Under the pieces are notes generated by a model. It was not told the DNA's origin, ran no database searches, and saw only the letters and a list, made by a program, of their open reading frames with translations. The position numbers and the translations under genes are program-made. A stretch of DNA of 63,838 nt, counting the filler, from Atractiella rhizophila (taxonomy: Eukaryota), in NCBI GenBank assembly GCA_021432655.1. It is 12 parts of 12 records of this genome, joined end to end, with 100 filler letters (N's around TTAATTAATTAA, not from the genome) between each part and the next. Parts side by side here need not be neighbours in the genome. Positions count along the whole stretch, not along the records: positions 45,282 to 50,765 come from MU272367.1; 11 more parts are not named here. One strand, given 5' to 3'. Below are positions 2,551 through 62,476 of this stretch, piece after piece. Each line of letters opens with the position of its first letter. Position 1 is the stretch's first letter.

Positions 2551-3893
2551 CTACAAACGCAGCAACTTCTCACCCTCACTACTCGCCAAGCCTAAGTCCT
2601 CCCACTCCACTTTCTCTGTCTCCCTCATCTCCTTCAACGCTTGACTAACCTTCTTCTTTTCCTCCTCATTTAATGCCTCCTCATTTCCCTCTCCCTCACT
2701 TCCCACAATCATTAAAATGGCCTTCAAAGCATTCTCGCGATAAATCGCATCCACACCTTCTGAATCGCCATCAGGACCGGTAGGTATCGAGGTGGAAGGA
2801 GAGAGGGAGGAAAGCAAGTCGTGTAGTGGAGAAGGCGGTTTCCGAAGATTCTGAACGAGGGTGGCAGTGGAGGTGGACTGTGTGAGAAGGGTGATTAGGA
2901 GCCATGAGGTGCGACGGCGCATTACAAGTGAGGGATCTAACACGACGTTTTCGTTCTTAATCGCAATACCAGTTGTGAGAAGTGGAGAACGAACCTGTTA
3001 ACCCTCGATGGAGTATTTCGACTCCTTCAGAGTCCAACCACTGCGTAGCGGTCTTCTCGTTGTGCTTCAGGCATCCGGAAATACAGTAGATAGCCTTCGA
3101 ACGCGTCTCAGCTGATGGATTGTCGAGGACGATCGAGTTGAGTAGCGGTAATGGGTTTTGCGCTAGGAACTACGAAATGATCAATCATTAGAAAATTCTC
3201 ATAGCGAACAAAGGAGGACCTACGTGATTTTGCGACTTCTCGTTGTTCTGAATGGCCGTACCACAGATCCAGAGAGCGTTGAATTTGTCGAGGTCATCTT
3301 TTGCTTGTAGAAATTCAATGAGAACAGGCCATAATTTCATGTTCTCAAGATCTGTAAAAGACAATCAGCCGGATTCGTTACCAACTATTGAGTTGTATAC
3401 CATTTGCATTGTCCAGATCTGCCACCAGCTGTGAAAATCAATCAGCGTCCATTTTTTGGAATATCAAACGCTTGAAAGGGCGCAATTGATTTTTCATCTA
3501 CGCTCAGACAGAACTTGCATGCTCTCTGTCGGAAAGCTTATAAAGGACGCATTGCGCTTTTATTCTTGCATAATCGTTCACTGGATCGTAAATGAATTAC
3601 AAATTTTTGACTTCGCCACTCCCGTTTTGCCTCCATAGAGCAAAAGAAGAGCGTACCATCTCAAGGCTCTCCCAAGTCACCTCTCGCTCACTAGCTGGTT
3701 CTCCTTCATCCAAACTCCTCTTGAGTACCTTGAAGCACCGCATGATCTTCTCTGCATCACTTTCCCCCATAATATGCTTCAGCATCTCAGGATTCAAATC
3801 AGGTCTCTTCCCAGCCTGAATTTCTGCATTGAGGGCTGGTAAAGAGTTTGGCGGCGCGTTAGCAAGTCCCCATTGCAAAAGTTGTTGCTCCAT
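2551..3893 (-). CDS. FES1: Hsp70 nucleotide-exchange factor Fes1/HspBP1
   Basis: N-terminal LLQWGLAN and GESDAE motifs. Spliced exons give LDNANDLENMKLWPV, ALWICGTAIQNNEKSQ and RSKAIYCISGCLKHN (ARM repeats). Confidence 0.9.
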
Positions 3894-5631: not shown

Positions 5632-5731
5632 NNNNNNNNNNNNNNNNNNNNNNNNNNNNNNNNNNNNNNNNNNNNTTAATTAATTAANNNNNNNNNNNNN
5701 NNNNNNNNNNNNNNNNNNNNNNNNNNNNNNN
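5632..5731. other. Artificial scaffold linker N44-TTAATTAATTAA-N44 (first of 11; others start at 11340, 17027, 22705, 28360, 33971, 39578, 45182, 50766, 56349, 61928)
   Basis: Identical 100-bp blocks with stops in all six frames. Genes break at them, and the intervening fragment lengths decrease monotonically. Confidence 0.97.
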
Positions 5732-11339: not shown

Positions 11340-11439
11340 NNNNNNNNNNNNNNNNNNNNNNNNNNNNNNNNNNNNNNNNNNNNTTAATTAATTAANNNNN
11401 NNNNNNNNNNNNNNNNNNNNNNNNNNNNNNNNNNNNNNN

Positions 11440-45181: not shown

Positions 45182-45815
45182 NNNNNNNNNNNNNNNNNNN
45201 NNNNNNNNNNNNNNNNNNNNNNNNNTTAATTAATTAANNNNNNNNNNNNNNNNNNNNNNNNNNNNNNNNNNNNNNNNNNNNTCGGCCTTCACAGTGGGTG
45301 CTGCACCAAAATTAGCCAATTATGGCAAAATTTGGCAAATATGGCAAATTTTGACGAACACGTTTTTGACAGGGCTTGACGTGTCGTTGGTGATTCGATT
45401 TTCGGCTTGTGGATGGTCGGCCGCTAGTTTCAGATTGGTGGAATGGAGGTTCTTCTTTAGGGGAGCGGCCGACGGAGTGTGAGCAGAATGGCGCGAGTGA
45501 ATTGAACGGTGTATAGGTGAAACAGTACTGGCGAACACTGTTCAATGGCCAGTTAGAAGTACGTAACTTAAATGCGCACGATATTACCGTTGAAAGGAAA
45601 GGGATTGAATTGCGATAGGGAGCGCTGCAAGCCTTCGACAGCGATGGTGTTCGAGAGCTACGACATGAAAGAGTCATTGGGGTCTCACACGCTCACTTAA
45701 AAGGGGCGCCTCATCAAACTTTTCTGCTCCAAAATTTTCAAACTTAGCTTCGCTCTAACAATAGCGACGACAGCTACCTGCACAACCAACCACAATCTCT
45801 CACTTTTGAAGCAAA

Positions 45816-47114
45816 ATGAGAATAAGAGTGGTGAGCAGTTCGCTCTCTAGGAACCAAGCCTGTCTCAAATGTATGTCATCCCATCTTGTTGGCTGTTGGC
45901 GCTAAACAATCGTGGCAGGTCGCAGTCGAAAGGTTGGTTGAGGCTTTAACTTGAACGCAGCAGTCCTCACGAAACTCCAGGTACGATGCTCAGCAGAGCG
46001 GCCTGCCTGTAACGCTTGCAGGAGTAAGTTAACCCCACTATACATTTAATCGCTGAGTTCCCCTTCAGGGAGCGCTAATGCTCGACGAGAAGACCCCTCT
46101 CTAGTTCGATGCATGTATATCAGCCCTCCTCCTTGGGGCGACAAGGAACAGGAATCTGAGGAGGGAGATCCCATTGTTGCTGACGGGTGTACTGAAGGTC
46201 CGTCATTCCATTTGTATCTGGCATCGCTGATTAACTGGGTTCCAGATGGTGATAAGAATGAGCGCTATTCTTTTAGAAAGACGGGCGGCAACCTTGCGGG
46301 CACTTTACGAGAATCGCCAGAGACAGTTTCAATTCGCTCGTTTTCGAAAGCTAAGCTGGCAAAGCCAACTAAGGCGAACAGTGTCCTAAAGAACACTCAG
46401 AAACGGAAACGGAAACCAAAAGCAACTGAGTCGGAGACGAATCATGACGCTCATTCGGATGCAGAAGGCGATACGGGCGATGATTTCACGTCACCACCGT
46501 CTCTTCTGTCCATGAACTTCTTCGCAACACACAGCTCTGCTCCATCCAGCGGTTTCTTTCCCTCTCCTCTCACGAGCGCCGCATTTTCTCCTCTTTCAAT
46601 TCAGACAACCTATCCCCCACATGCCTATTCGGCTAACGAGTATTCGAATGTGCAAGGAAAGGCAGCCAATAAACTCCAAACAGTCGCGAACCAGGTCGAG
46701 TACTGTGCTCCAGTGGTTCACGATTATGCATCATTCCCAGACCTCCATCGAGCCGCCTCTCCAGCACTGCCTTCTTCCGGAAATCTGGCCTTATTTCGCG
46801 GAAATGGGAGCTATCCCGTCACTCCAGGCGTAGATGTTCAGGCTCAAATGCAGCTTCAATGCCTCTGCCTCCGGCCTATCGAACAGCCCATTGACATTTC
46901 GCCACTACCTCCTGCAATGTCTCTACCAACACCGGGACTTTATCTTCCCCCTCTGACGATCCAAGCGACTACAAGCGCTTATATGCCAGTATCTCAAACC
47001 TCTCATATATCTCACATTCACGCTCTCCCGCATCAAACTCCGCATCAGCTCTCAGTTGCTCCTGCCCCTACTTCCCAAACTTTCGTGCCCGTTAATTACC
47101 AAGGTCCCGTCTAG
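45816..47114 (+). CDS. Zn(II)2Cys6 binuclear-cluster transcription factor
   Basis: Exons splice to MRIRVVSSSLSRNQACLKCRSRKVRCSAERPACNACRRSANARREDPSLVRCMY, with all six Cys present. An NLS-like KRKRKPK and an S/P/Q-rich tail follow. Confidence 0.85.
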
Positions 47115-47426
47115 CTAGCGGAATCCAGTCCGCTCCCTATCACGGAGCAGATAGAGCAGTTTACAAGTTTTCTTTTCGACAGCATATTCCCTTCTGAGTT
47201 GTTGAATGAGTGAAATTAGAGCGCTTAATATCTCAGACATTAGGTCGGCAGCATTGTAAACGTTAACAAAAATAAAGGTAAATGGGGGAAAGTAGATGTT
47301 GACCGCAGAGATTTCAGGGGATGGAGAGGTCACTAGGAGGACGTTAGATCCGGAAATCGTGCAGACGAGGCGGAAAAAATGGCGCATATCGGCAGCCCCG
47401 TCGATTTCCAACACCAACATTTGCAA
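47115..47426 (-). pseudogene. Possible non-LTR retrotransposon AP-endonuclease remnant
   Basis: ISAVNIY..FTFIFVNVYNA resembles the xNVYN strand of LINE APE domains. Weak evidence. Confidence 0.3.
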
Positions 47427-47869
47427 GAACTTGATTTGACCGAAAATTTGCTATTGTCTCTTGATTTCACTTAACCTTTATTTCATATACGTATGTAGGC
47501 AGATCTCCCTTATTCTTCATTCCTCTCTTTCTCTTTCTGATACATAACGAAATCAATTACGTTTGCGCAGGTGTCTCCCCACCAACACCAATACCCTGCC
47601 CCCGACTCTCACCTCTCCAACTCCAAAGGGGGATAGGTGCACCTCACAAGATTATGGGGAACGGGAACGTCAATGGGGAGGAGTCGGATAGCACCCAGTC
47701 ATGGATTTTCAGATCTCTAAGCGGAACCGCCGTCAGATGATATTTCACACAACGCCTTAAACACTTTCATGCATAGAGAAGAAAGATGAGGATGAGGGGC
47801 AATTGGTTTTTCTCAGGTTGTTTACATTACGGTCTTTTTACCTTTTTACAGATGCATAACCCCCTTTTT

Positions 47870-48240
47870 ATTCGACTTGCAACTACCGCAGAATGAGAGA
47901 CATGGCCCACCTTTTCCTCCAATGCGAGCAACATGACGAGGAGCGGAGGAAACTAAGGACAAGGTTGCGTAATAACGCAGTCCGGTTCAATTCACTGGGT
48001 GATTTCCTGAGCGAACTGGTTTTGGGGGTTTATTTCGCCATCAAACCCACACCTCATCAATGTTACTCTCTGGAGACTCTAACTCCTATGTGCCCTTCTC
48101 TAAACATTGACCCTTCTTCTCATTGCACCAAATTTTGATATCTAGAAATACACTTGGGAACAAGAACACCAAAACCTCTTCTTCCTATCGCCTTGTGGGC
48201 ATACCCCCACGCGCCAAAAAGAATTAACGAAGCAACTAAC
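47870..48240 (+). mobile_element. 5'-truncated LINE (Tad1-like) 3' end
   Basis: STCNYRRMRDMAHLFLQCEQHDEERRKLR resembles the C-terminal H-x3/4-C zinc motif of LINE ORF2. It is followed by a GTGGG..CCCAC stem and an A-rich tail. Confidence 0.5.
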
Positions 48241-48294
48241 CCTATAATCGACTATGATCTAAGCTCTACCCACTGTGCACAAGCTCAGCGTCTT

Positions 48295-50765
48295 CTACTC
48301 ATCAATCTTGTCCTGTAAACTTAACGCTGCATCCCGCATCCCTGCCCAGCGCCTTTGAGTGTACTTCGTCGTTCTTGCTTCGGCTACTGCAGTTAACTTC
48401 TCCAGGGATTTTGCGTTCCAACCGTCATGTCGGTAGATTTCGTGATCTAAGTTGCCTTTGCTGAGCTCTTTTAAGACCGTGCTACTCGCTAATGTAACTA
48501 TGCCCATAGCCGGACGAAAAAGAGGTTCGCCATCGACTTCGCGACTACGACCGTAGTACGGAGGCGCGAGGAGCGTTGCATGGTACAGGTCGCGGCTCCT
48601 CCAACCGTGCACCGAACCACCAGGCGTTGTGAGCACAAGCTGGACAGAATTTGTCAGTCGTGGGCACTCGGGGGCTTCGTACTCACATCAAACGCTGGAA
48701 AGAACATTGAATTCGCCAAAGGGCATGTCTCGCACTCTTCATTGAATGCATTGTGGCTGTATGTAAAGTTGCGATCAGTTATGTCGACGTGAGATGGTCC
48801 CACGTAGGCGCTAGCACAGTACTGGGTGACGGGGAGAAATTGGAGATTTGCTTTCAAGGGATGTTCCAGGTTGGACATGCTCCAGTCGTAATAGATTTCC
48901 GGAACAACCTTTTCCATCAAAGTCAGGAGGCGGCATCCGATTACTGAATTCGTTTGAACAACTGCGGATGTATAAACGGTTGACGTACCACTGTTGCTAT
49001 CTGCCAGCTCGAGCTTACATCTATCTCTTCTGTCCCCTTCCACGCGCTTAGATTCTATGAGGTCTTCATCGTCGATATTTTCACGAGGCCTCTAGGAGAT
49101 AGGAACCTTACTCCACTAGATCCGCAGCACTGAACCGACTCACCTTGCCTAGTCCGCTGATCTTTGGCGCAAAAGGTCCAATGCTCCTCCGTACCTGAGC
49201 TGCGCGTTGGCCAGAAAATCCGCTCATGCGCCCTCGAGAGGTATTGGCTCGGGCTTTATGCCGAACTATGGGAGCAAGTAGGTCTAGAGTCGACAATATT
49301 GCATCTATCGCATCCCAATCCATGTCGTCATCGAGAATGTTGAAATGTTCGCTGGCGATCTGTACATTTGAGTCAGGTTATTTGTGATGCGAATGATTGC
49401 AAGAACAAAAATACTAAAGCTTCCAAAGGTAATCTATCGCCATTTTCTGGAATCCAATCTGGATCAGCCATAGGATGATTGTTCTTCACCAGCCAATCTT
49501 GGTCTAGGATATAAACTGATTCTGGTTCATCGGAGCTGGGTTCTATGATCTCCAAGTCGCATAGTTCGAGCACCATTCGCAGACTCTCATCTGCATCTTT
49601 CCTCTTGCGGAATTTCGGGTTCCGTATCGGGGAAGGTGGAAGGCCGACTTCCCCAGATGGATCTATGAAATGGCTCAGCTACATACACCGGCAAAACAAA
49701 GTAGGGAACAGACCACGAAGAAAAAAGAGTTTGTTATCCGTTTCTTTCTCCTTTTTGGCATCGCGGACCCGATTCAGTCGTATGATACGAATCGAAGCAC
49801 GTGCAGCAGCTCGCTCGATTTTCTTGTGGACCTCCCTTTCGCTGATGACCTTAGCTATCCATTTGGCCGCGAAGGGGAAAGTTGTGCAGAATTTTATTTT
49901 CTGATTGGGCTCGACCCGGAGGAGGTCACCGTAAACCTTTTTTGACACTGACTGTCTGCTCGTTTGATACCAGAAGTAACGGATGGAAACGGAAACTAAC
50001 ATAGTCAATAGAGACTTTTAGCAACGTCGGAATGATATTCGACACGAACAAATGCTCCTGGGCGAGGCATTGTAGCGTCATTCCTGTTTAAATTGGATAT
50101 AGTTCGTCCCTGCAACATGAACGAAGGACTACGCACCAGTGACTCCGGGCGCAAATAGTTTCTCATCCTTCACCTCAAGTGAGAGTAGAAGAAAGAAAAG
50201 AAGTGGATAGTGGATGTCCTTTGAGAATGCTCCCTTCGTGCCGGATGCGGTGACCCCTATTATTTCGAGGGCGTCATGTCGTAGCTCCACAAACGTCACT
50301 ATCCTCTCCACCGTCTCCCTATCATCAGATTGTCACATATGTCATTTCGCATCTATGAGAGTGGGAAAAAAACCGACTTGGTAGAGCCTCTGGATAGTGT
50401 GGCCAACAGCCTATAATAACGGCCCTCAAGGTTCCCGATCCCATTAGGTCGGGCGTTCAACATAGACTCGGACGTGCTCAGCAATTCATCCCATCTTTCC
50501 TTTTTTGCATGGCCCTTGGCCTGTTACGATCCTATTCATGTGACAATTGAGTTGGAATGAATCGAAGACTCCCCTCATTAATATGTTTTGCCCAGAGTTT
50601 CTCCGCCATGTAGATCTTGTTGATTATGAAGAGGTGGCAAATGCGAATCACTCCACAATGAGAAATGATGCCCTGGAACCTTGCAGGGCTGGGTTAGTGT
50701 TGAGATAGGGAAGGCTTAGAGCAGTTAGTGCGGCTGTAGTGCAAATGTTACAGCTGGTTCTCCTT
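48295..50765 (-). CDS. TET/JBP-like 2-oxoglutarate/Fe(II) dioxygenase, multi-exon, 5' end uncertain or beyond fragment
   Basis: Spliced product: RGRMSGFSGQR...YVGPSHVDITDRNFT (HxD at 48783-48791)...MFFPAFD|LVLTTPGGSVHGWRSRDLYHATL (distal His at 48580-48582)...RPAMGIV. Intron 48640-48686 has GTGAGT, CTGAC and CAG signals. Confidence 0.7.
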
Positions 50766-61216: not shown

Positions 61217-62476
61217 ACTCTGTTCCCAAATTGCTGGCTCTCTACGTCCAGCCTTACGTACCGTTTCCACGTTTCATTGTCAACTTGTCAACCTTGCCTC
61301 AATGAGTGATTGGATTCATTCAAAACCATAGCTGCTTTTTCATCGCAATAATCAGTTTGTAGTTCATTTCATGATTGCTTCCGCGACAATGTACATCTTG
61401 GCCTCCTCCCTCATTGAAACTACCCAAAGCTCTTCGTATTACGGCCCTTGGGAAACTATGAGGGTGCAGCGACAGGAATTGGTGCTCCATCTGTCATCTT
61501 CTGTTTCTTCCATGCATGTGCTCTAGCAAGGAAGGAAGAACCGATGCTGCTCGACTCTGCGGCATCGTCGGGGAAAGTAGCCACAAATTCTGGTCCAGCC
61601 AAAATGGTCGCTTAGATCATATCAAGGGGTGTAGAATGCACTGACCTTCAGACATCTGACCATTCTCATCCTTTTTATACCGCCGGACAGTATATGGCAT
61701 CTTTGCCTCCACTTTGGCCAATGAATCTGTGTCTCCATGCTGCTGTTCAAGCGCTTTCCACACGTTCAGAATTGCCGTTCTCTACTCCCATCGCGCAGAT
61801 GGTCAGTGTAACACCATGTGCAAAGAATGGATAGGACGTACTGATTGAGACATTGCCTTGCTCTTGAACTCTGCATAGGCCCTCTCCAGCACCTTCCTAG
61901 CTCTCTCCACCCCGTCCCTCCTCGCTTNNNNNNNNNNNNNNNNNNNNNNNNNNNNNNNNNNNNNNNNNNNNTTAATTAATTAANNNNNNNNNNNNNNNNN
62001 NNNNNNNNNNNNNNNNNNNNNNNNNNNTGAGAAGTTGAGGTCGTGGAAGAAATGGACGTGTGCCGTACACCAGAGGAACTGCACATACAGTCACCTGACG
62101 AGACAGGTACTTAAACGAAGATGAAGTGTACAGCTACCAGTCCAATTAGGTCTCACCGCACTAGTGTATACTGTTAGGGCTCTGGGTTCAGTGAGTTGTC
62201 TTCTGTGACATCAGCAAAAGATTATGAGAGTTTTTGAGAGCTTCTTCGTCACGAAAAAACTAGTTGAGAAAGAATGAAAACACAATACGACTGTGATCGC
62301 CAGTTGCTTGTAGTAGCTATGGATGTACCACGCAATCACACATTCATACATTCTCCGTGATATTTGATAAGAGGCTGAGATGCTGAAAAATCGTGATGGT
62401 CTTGGGTCATCTTAGCTATTTTTAAGAAGAAAGATTCAAGAGCAAGAAGCTTGATTGTTGTATTTTACACTAGCTT

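Follow-up and report, generated by a model that had tools for sequence, protein, structure and literature searches.

The stretch of Atractiella rhizophila DNA analysed here (hereafter the window; 63,838 nucleotides (nt), filler included) contains an intact, transcribed gene of nine exons that belongs to a small dispersed family found only in this fungus. The gene lies on the minus strand of one piece of the window (45282-50765; 5,484 bases) and encodes a protein of 585 amino acids (aa), which we read, with reasonable confidence, as a fusion of a probably all-helical N-terminal module of about 280 aa with a predicted Fe(II)/2-oxoglutarate dioxygenase domain of about 300 aa. Judging from its motifs and its language-model neighbours, the C-terminal half is rather likely to be a true, probably active, very divergent oxygenase of the TET/JBP type. 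The window itself is a chain of twelve pieces, most of them about 5.5 kb long and ordered by falling size, which are separated by eleven linkers of the form N44-TTAATTAATTAA-N44 (5632-5731, 11340-11439 and so on to 61928-62027), and features on separate pieces are therefore not genomic neighbours. The "transposon-rich fragment" in which the original prediction had placed the gene can accordingly designate only the piece 45282-50765, as the window consists of joined pieces and is not one locus.

Gene model and transcription

Joined at the joints supported by RNA, the nine exons give a single intact frame of 585 codons (Table 1). Four public runs were compared with positions 48250-50700: X1 is a DNA run, X7 a root metatranscriptome RNA from a separate study, and X3 (61% of sampled words), the type of which is unrecorded, was taken as complementary DNA since each of its listed pieces terminates at an exon border; the fourth run is X5. 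Eight stretches are skipped in X3, with plus-strand ends CT..AC that correspond to GT..AG for a gene on the minus strand. Counting introns of the exact copy, all eight are skipped in X3, two in X7 (together with the paralog form of a third), one in X5 and none in the DNA run X1. The contigs bearing these joints match the window without a single difference, which means that the present copy, or another identical to it, is transcribed. Four further joints in X3 (skips of 48, 73, 61 and 59, with 3, 21, 6 and 8 letters between) come from a diverged paralog that is spliced at corresponding positions, and two joints in X1, from 49094 to 49167 (78 letters between) and from 50253 to 50368, correspond to paralog differences. 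The gene is thus real, spliced as proposed and transcribed.

The original prediction had joined two short open reading frames (ORFs) through a single 47-nt intron. Both minus-strand ORFs (48654-49091 and 48295-48687) exist, and the intron at 48640-48686 is spliced: it is skipped in X3 and in an X7 contig with 110 letters on its shorter side, a loose end of X5 at 48639 runs on into the letters that come after 48687, and the contigs of X1 that skip it number zero. What did not hold is its being the only one, as the gene has eight introns, including an in-frame intron of 45 nt that lies inside the claimed upstream ORF and the stretch of which is missing from the paralog models P0001 and P0002. 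A second intron at 48475-48537, as in P0001, was considered and ruled out for this copy, both RNA contigs (X3 record 8 for the exact copy, record 9 for a paralog) running colinear across it.

The gene was indeed hidden, as had been claimed. The deposited protein P0006 (BT69DRAFT_86782; 292 aa), which is the model of the present locus, is identical to the window exons at 278/278 residues (residues 1-278), then reads into the intron at 49360-49414 and ends in LEALVFLFLQSFASQIT, at 49376. As this model stops inside intron 5, the oxygenase-like half is unannotated in the public record. The deposited paralog models are likewise all partial, which we attribute to missed short introns.

At the other end of the gene, a candidate upstream first exon resembles the start of paralog P0004 (Table 1), yet the 53 nt that follow it (50521-50573) open with GG where GT would be expected, and the public runs compared with 48250-50700 contain no RNA joint at this exon. 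The true N-terminus is for these reasons uncertain, and the methionine at 50463 is the deposited start. The loss of a canonical donor at this exon, together with a 5.5-kb scaffold such as repeats give rise to and with the partial state of all deposited paralog models, would be in keeping with a decaying repeat copy or pseudogene, the frame and the transcription of which are functionless leftovers. The 585 codons, however, run through nine exons without a stop or a frameshift, all eight introns are canonical and spliced, the catalytic candidates described below are kept, and missed short introns account for the partial models. Moreover, the ratio of observed to expected CpG is 1.01 in the gene versus 0.76-0.92 in the twelve pieces, a weak indication that there is no trace of methylation-driven decay. 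We therefore regard a pseudogene as very unlikely.

Table 1. Coordinates of the gene, its exons and introns, and the features of the encoded protein (window positions; numbers in brackets as recorded for each run).
Feature	Position	Strand	Details
Coding region	48295..50463	-	9 exons, 585 aa + stop; ATG at 50463, stop 48297-48295
Exons 1-9	50378-50463, 50137-50318, 50001-50083, 49714-49951, 49415-49662, 49144-49359, 48989-49091, 48687-48943, 48295-48639	-	
Intron 1	50319..50377	-	59 nt, GTCGGT..TAG; skipped in X3 (92.7), cut +1
Intron 2	50084..50136	-	53 nt, GTGCGT..CAG; skipped in X3 (92.7) and X7 (7.3), cut +1
Intron 3	49952..50000	-	49 nt, GTTAGT..CAG; skipped in X3 (65.2)
Intron 4	49663..49713	-	51 nt, GTCTGT..TAG; skipped in X3 (22.8); equivalent skipped by paralog contigs in X3 (54.4) and X7 (3.6)
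Intron 5	49360..49414	-	55 nt, GTATTT..CAG; skipped in X3 (22.8; paralog contig 54.4)
Intron 6	49092..49143	-	52 nt, GTGAGT..TAG; skipped in X3 (30.1), likewise in paralog contig
Intron 7	48944..48988	-	45 nt, in frame, GTACGT..CAG; skipped in X3 (30.1) and X5 (2); equivalent skipped by diverged paralog contig
Intron 8	48640..48686	-	47 nt, GTGAGT...GTCCAG; skipped in X3 (89.6) and X7 (side 110); X5 loose end at 48639
N-terminal module, residues 1-279	49415..50463	-	exons 1-5; without known family
TET/JBP-like oxygenase half, residues 280-585	48295..49359	-	exons 6-9
GRMSGFSGQR, G322-R331	49204..49233	-	counterpart of PU-type G-x-M-x3-G-[WF]-R strand motif, one extra residue
H437-V-D439-I-T-D442 (P-x-H-x-D-x-x-D)	48774..48791	-	proposed Fe(II) ligands His and Asp; H437-V-D439 of SHVD at 48791-48783
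W484-RSRDLY-H491-AT	48574..48603	-	proposed distal Fe(II) ligand His; H491 at 48582-48580
R502-S-R504	48541..48549	-	candidate 2-oxoglutarate-binding Arg, 11 or 13 residues past H491
21 codons V506-V526	48475..48537	-	lacking in paralog model P0001 (HG instead); kept in RNA contigs
Candidate upstream first exon MAEKLWAKHINE	50574..50609	-	resembles start of paralog P0004

The predicted oxygenase half and its rivals

The motifs on which the prediction was built (SHVD, LYHAT, a downstream Arg and an upstream GxM..G.R) are all found in the 585-aa spliced model. At the level of the sequence, H437-V-D439 and H491 make up a His-x-Asp...His facial triad, and R502 and R504 supply an Arg shortly past the distal His. 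H437, D439 and D442 are kept in 3/3 covering paralogs and H491 and R504 in 2/2, R502 being kept in 1/2 (His in P0003), such that the triad-plus-Arg pattern is present, with R504, in every paralog that covers it. In the upstream motif, M324, G326 and G329 are kept in 4/4 covering paralogs and R331 in 3/4 (Cys in P0002). Among the paralogs, conservation is highest in the core at residues 396-505, with 97/110 residues identical to P0001 and 105/110 to P0003 (88-95% identity) and 68/83 to a third paralog, the N-terminal module being less conserved at 63-87% identity (168/243 with P0002, 170/270 with P0004). In the mechanism that we propose, H437, D439 and H491 would hold Fe(II), R504 or R502 would hold 2-oxoglutarate, and the enzyme, like its fungal relatives, would oxidise the methyl group of a DNA base, most likely that of 5-methylcytosine (5mC), with N6-methyladenine (6mA) or thymine as possible substrates.

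The best lead for the affinity of this half is to TET/JBP enzymes. In the ESM Atlas, P0001, a paralog that covers the oxygenase half, had a first match with a score of 0.95 and 210/256 shared features, and clusters carrying PF12851 (Tet_JBP) made up 23/30 of its neighbours, the other seven being unnamed and the best of these a Basidiomycota cluster; the ten best family-bearing matches all agree. In the calibration of this search, roughly one shuffled protein in 100 attains a score of 0.95, and a true family match usually has at least 170 shared features.

The motifs point in the same direction. Compared by eye, unscored and after the hypothesis was known, with the fungal TET domains of Table S1 of PMC12730594, at a block identity of about 20-35%, the motif blocks of the Atractiella protein follow one another as they do in the PU, AG and PE types given there and are spaced similarly. 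Facing the PU-type, IASEHF (residues 280-285) corresponds to IAIMEF, ILSTL to FISTFL, GRMSGFSGQR (322-331) to GGKMWGIGWR, PSHVDITD (435-442) to PPHKDHND, MFFPAF (465-470) to FVFPSF, and WRSRDLYHATL (484-494) to WQANKYRHCTL, with a W-to-H spacing of 7 in both; YGRSRE can be set beside FSRLGL (PMC12730594). From the AG-type come PSGSVALFSGYFVLH, equal in length to PGGSVHGWRSRDLYH here, and VVHPQLY..QHP, to be read with VVPEIYY..EHP, and MFFPAFDLV..WRSRDLYHATLLA parallels NFFISDYGI..WQTRMFHGTSLA of the PE-type (PMC12730594). The spacer from the Arg to the His of HxD is 105 residues here versus 94 in these published domains (PMC12730594). Such colinearity is suggestive and is not a statistic.

A series of results weighs against this assignment, starting with the post hoc character of the motif comparison just given. 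Pfam, including Tet_JBP, returned no family for the eight exon ORFs (expectation value (E) <=1) nor for either of the paralogs P0001 and P0002 (E <=10), HMMER filters discarding most rows above E ~0.1; of the TET/JBP likeness that had been claimed, the Atlas neighbourhood and the colinear motifs stand, and the profile does not support it. PHROGs and NCBIfam gave no usable family match for the gene family, neither phmmer nor a family profile brought up a matching PDB chain (the sole rows being a Fab, E 0.99, and PA3352, E 1.8), and phmmer with P0001 retrieved no TET protein among 1,835,955,588 representatives at E <=0.001. AlphaFold2 drew the protein mostly helical, with a predicted local distance difference test (pLDDT) value of 35.6 from eight alignment rows and of 34.0 from one sequence, too low for a fold reading, and no double-stranded beta-helix was seen in these two models, both of too low a confidence for use. 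Even among shuffled proteins, one in three has ten top matches in the Atlas search that agree on a family. Lastly, CcTet, the AG-type enzyme of Coprinopsis cinerea, holds the flipped base with Phe391 and Arg393, as human Tet2 (hTet2) does with Tyr1902 and His1904 (PMC11040006), and these CcTet residues (Arg385 +6/+8) have no clear counterpart past R502/R504, where the paralogs vary.

Several weaker rows were set aside. The library rows phrog_36753 (E 0.4), eIF-2B_rel (E 0.16) and AAC_3_IV (E 0.099) were dismissed as chance-level, as was the single row (E 10) of a tblastn search against 50,697 phage records. PF12851 had no match in prokaryote genomes (sets of 5, 401 and 401), and neither had the 14 controls.

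The absence of a Tet_JBP match and of recognisable CcTet base-holding residues would suit a jelly-roll 2-oxoglutarate/Fe(II) oxygenase that does not oxidise nucleic-acid bases, maybe a small-molecule or protein hydroxylase with a generic HxD...H...R, all the more as the triad and Arg residues extend across the superfamily, being common to Tet and AlkB enzymes in the part of PMC11040006 that treats them. This reading is at odds with the Atlas neighbours, which are specifically PF12851 (23/30) and of which the ten best family-bearing ones agree, and with the motifs outside the triad (G-x-M..G..R, F-x-F-P and W-x6-H-x-T), which are those of the transposon-borne fungal TETs tabulated in PMC12730594; no other oxygenase family of Pfam matches either. 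We consider it improbable.

It is likewise unlikely, in our view, that the protein is not an oxygenase at all, that is, a lineage-specific orphan with a different fold, perhaps carried as cargo by some unrecognised mobile element, the motifs of which resemble those of TET by chance. No significant sequence match was found outside Atractiella, AlphaFold2 gave no fold, the motif comparison was post hoc, and motif matches arise easily by chance, as illustrated by a phage VanY-like protein that shares a 20-residue stretch around PGGSVHGW at 60% identity. On the other side, a score of 0.95 with 210 features is reached by only about 1 in 100 shuffled proteins, seven or eight motifs of the published table are in the right order and spacing, and conservation peaks on the proposed catalytic core and ligands.

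The VanY-like stretch itself was found with the core of P0003 as query, in a locus of a viral contig (L001; ORF 2659-3648 (+)), where 12/20 residues are shared with the PGGSVHGW..HAT stretch. The match of this ORF to VanY-like peptidases is weak (E 0.0023), and no loci related to its protein were found among genome contigs. We rejected the likeness as chance because the stretch of the Atractiella family lacks the S-x-H-x-x-G-x-A-x-D register, which we take to be the VanY-like motif.

As to the several hundred unassigned residues that the prediction had placed in front of the domain, they are confirmed as residues 1-279, for which neither Pfam nor NCBIfam has a family and for which a word-index search found relatives in Atractiella only. 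A TPR-like lead over residues 3-305 has Atlas scores of 0.86-0.88 and template-modelling scores of 0.43-0.44 by query, with 4/10 of the best family-bearing Atlas matches in agreement and with a model pLDDT of 0.38, below the bar of the tool; the model resembles helical TPR-like repeat proteins weakly, and no Pfam TPR match was obtained. As a guess, the module may be a helical repeat that would serve targeting or partner binding.

Copies and genomic surroundings

Searched by phmmer (E <=0.001) against the same 1,835,955,588 representatives, P0001, which is spliced at the 47-nt intron, retrieved four proteins, all from A. rhizophila, and word-index searches returned the same proteins plus P0006, again all from A. 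rhizophila. The family occupies at least five loci (P0001, P0002, P0003 with P0005, P0004 and P0006) on five scaffolds of 5.5, 16.7, 111, 134 and 194 kb. P0003 and P0005 lie on one scaffold and resemble two halves of a single gene, and the fusion architecture is also found in P0002, in P0004 and in P0005 plus P0003. In the DNA run X1, 38 contigs fall on the gene (identity classes 20/1/9/8), and the depth of window-identical contigs is 404-506 versus 117-132 for the diverged ones, which, depth in X1 not being copy number, hints that the present copy exists three or four times over. Such a presence would also explain the short scaffold, and the roughly three- to fourfold depth of the exact-copy contigs relative to the diverged paralogs is our reason for suspecting a recent multiplication. 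The gene is not a retrocopy, given its eight introns.

None of the ORFs of 45282-50765 matched a transposase family, which agrees with the prediction that no KDZ or Plavaka transposase is visible beside the gene; the scaffold is 5,484 bases long, versus the 7-21 kb spanned by TET-carrying elements (Kojima 2025, PMC12730594). Neither direct nor inverted repeats of at least 18 nt occur within the scaffold (0 of each), although the ends of an element may lie outside it. Of the proposal that the gene encodes a transposon-associated anti-silencing factor, its presence in multiple dispersed copies is in favour, and the lack of a visible transposase, terminal inverted repeat or target-site duplication on the 5.5-kb scaffold is against. 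The gene may be either transposon cargo or a member of an expanding host gene family. The most far-reaching reading, of a new Atractiellomycete-specific subfamily of TET-type/5-methylpyrimidine dioxygenases permanently fused to a helical (TPR-like) targeting module and recently multiplied, as cargo of an as yet unrecognised mobile element or as a self-standing host gene, is one that we would put forward as doubtful in this full form. Under this reading, base-holding residues unlike those of CcTet and TET2 would mean that the substrate or product may differ from a conversion of 5mC to 5-hydroxymethylcytosine.

On the upstream side of the gene, X1 has five DNA contigs (boundary at 50664-50666) and X7 one RNA contig (boundary at 50671) whose agreement with the window is confined to the right-hand side of these positions and which continue leftward in unrelated sequence; a different repeat apparently starts some 55 nt upstream of the candidate start codon. 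Elsewhere on the same scaffold, which has no Rfam match, an open frame of 354 codons at 46050-47114 (+) is Ser/Pro-rich and without a Pfam family, and could represent either a genuine gene or low-complexity read-through. An ORF at 47860-48138 (+), oriented towards the 3' end of the oxygenase-like gene, contains HLFLQCEQHDEERRKLRTRL, which is reminiscent of a Cys/His tail such as the C-terminal end of ORF2 proteins of non-LTR retrotransposons; Pfam did not support this likeness, its sole row being GP88 (E 0.11).

The other pieces of the window carry ordinary fungal genes (Fes1, KCH, TPT, SDR, Clr2, BTB, F-box) and one hAT dimerisation domain, and a Pfam scan of 136 ORFs of at least 100 aa found no Tet_JBP match on them. 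The hAT-family domain (PF05699; 21832-22275 (+), E 1.3e-4) lies on another piece, unlinked to the oxygenase-like gene, and is a relic of a DNA transposon in the assembly. The Clr2 transcription-silencing domain (PF16761; 59209-59991 (+), E 5.6e-17), on yet another piece, marks a heterochromatin factor that is positionally unrelated to the gene.

Comparison with known TET/JBP enzymes

Expansions of TET/JBP genes in Basidiomycota, including Pucciniomycotina, are already published, and within Pucciniomycotina the available portion of that catalogue reports TET-carrying elements in rusts only (Kojima 2025, PMC12730594). Atractiella goes unmentioned in both the text and supplement file 1 of the catalogue (PMC12730594), and in the searched library no paper pairing "Atractiell" with "TET JBP" was found; the supplements of Iyer 2014 might list related proteins of other Pucciniomycotina.

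The phage 5-methylpyrimidine dioxygenases of PF12851 (260-300 aa) are the nearest language-model clusters (ranks 1 and 2, score 0.95), whereas the Pfam model itself has no match (E <=10), PHROGs has none, and the phage tblastn search gave only its chance row.

CcTet, for which structures have been solved, oxidises both 5mC and 6mA (PMC11040006). In CcTet, Asp328 and His376 are 48 residues apart and Arg385 lies 9 residues past His376, compared with 52 residues from D439 to H491 and an Arg 11 or 13 residues past H491 in the Atractiella protein (PMC11040006). The AG-type relatives of CcTet share P-x-G-S-V-x9-H and V-V-x-P-x-x-Y with the Atractiella protein in the published sequences, and CcTet, as described in the relevant part of PMC11040006, is without a long extra N-terminal module, unlike the protein discussed here.

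The PU-type TETs of the DNA transposons of rust fungi (PMC12730594) come from the same subphylum, Pucciniomycotina, and are, like the Atractiella genes, present in multiple copies. As judged by eye from the sequences tabulated for them, the two share the order I-A-x3-F, S-T-x-L helix, G-x-M..G..R, P-x-H-x-D-x-x-D, F-x-F-P, W-x6-H-x-T-L and Arg. They differ in that no sequence search links the PU-type proteins to the Atractiella protein, which has in addition, compared with the tabulated domains, a module of 280 aa at its N-terminus, eight introns and a distance from HxD to F-x-F-P that is about 10 residues shorter, and in that no transposase lies beside the Atractiella gene on its scaffold, in contrast to the transposon-borne types.

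If our reading is right, TET/JBP-type enzymes in Pucciniomycotina would reach beyond the rusts to the Atractiellomycetes, and whole fungal clades of the family would go unseen by the Pfam model and by plain sequence searches. The gene model given here would also correct a truncated public one, and the natural fusion of an oxygenase with an unknown module could reveal how such enzymes are targeted. The known picture, in which basidiomycetes carry expanded and often repeat-linked TET/JBP genes, would remain unchanged, with the Atractiella family extending this fungal theme.

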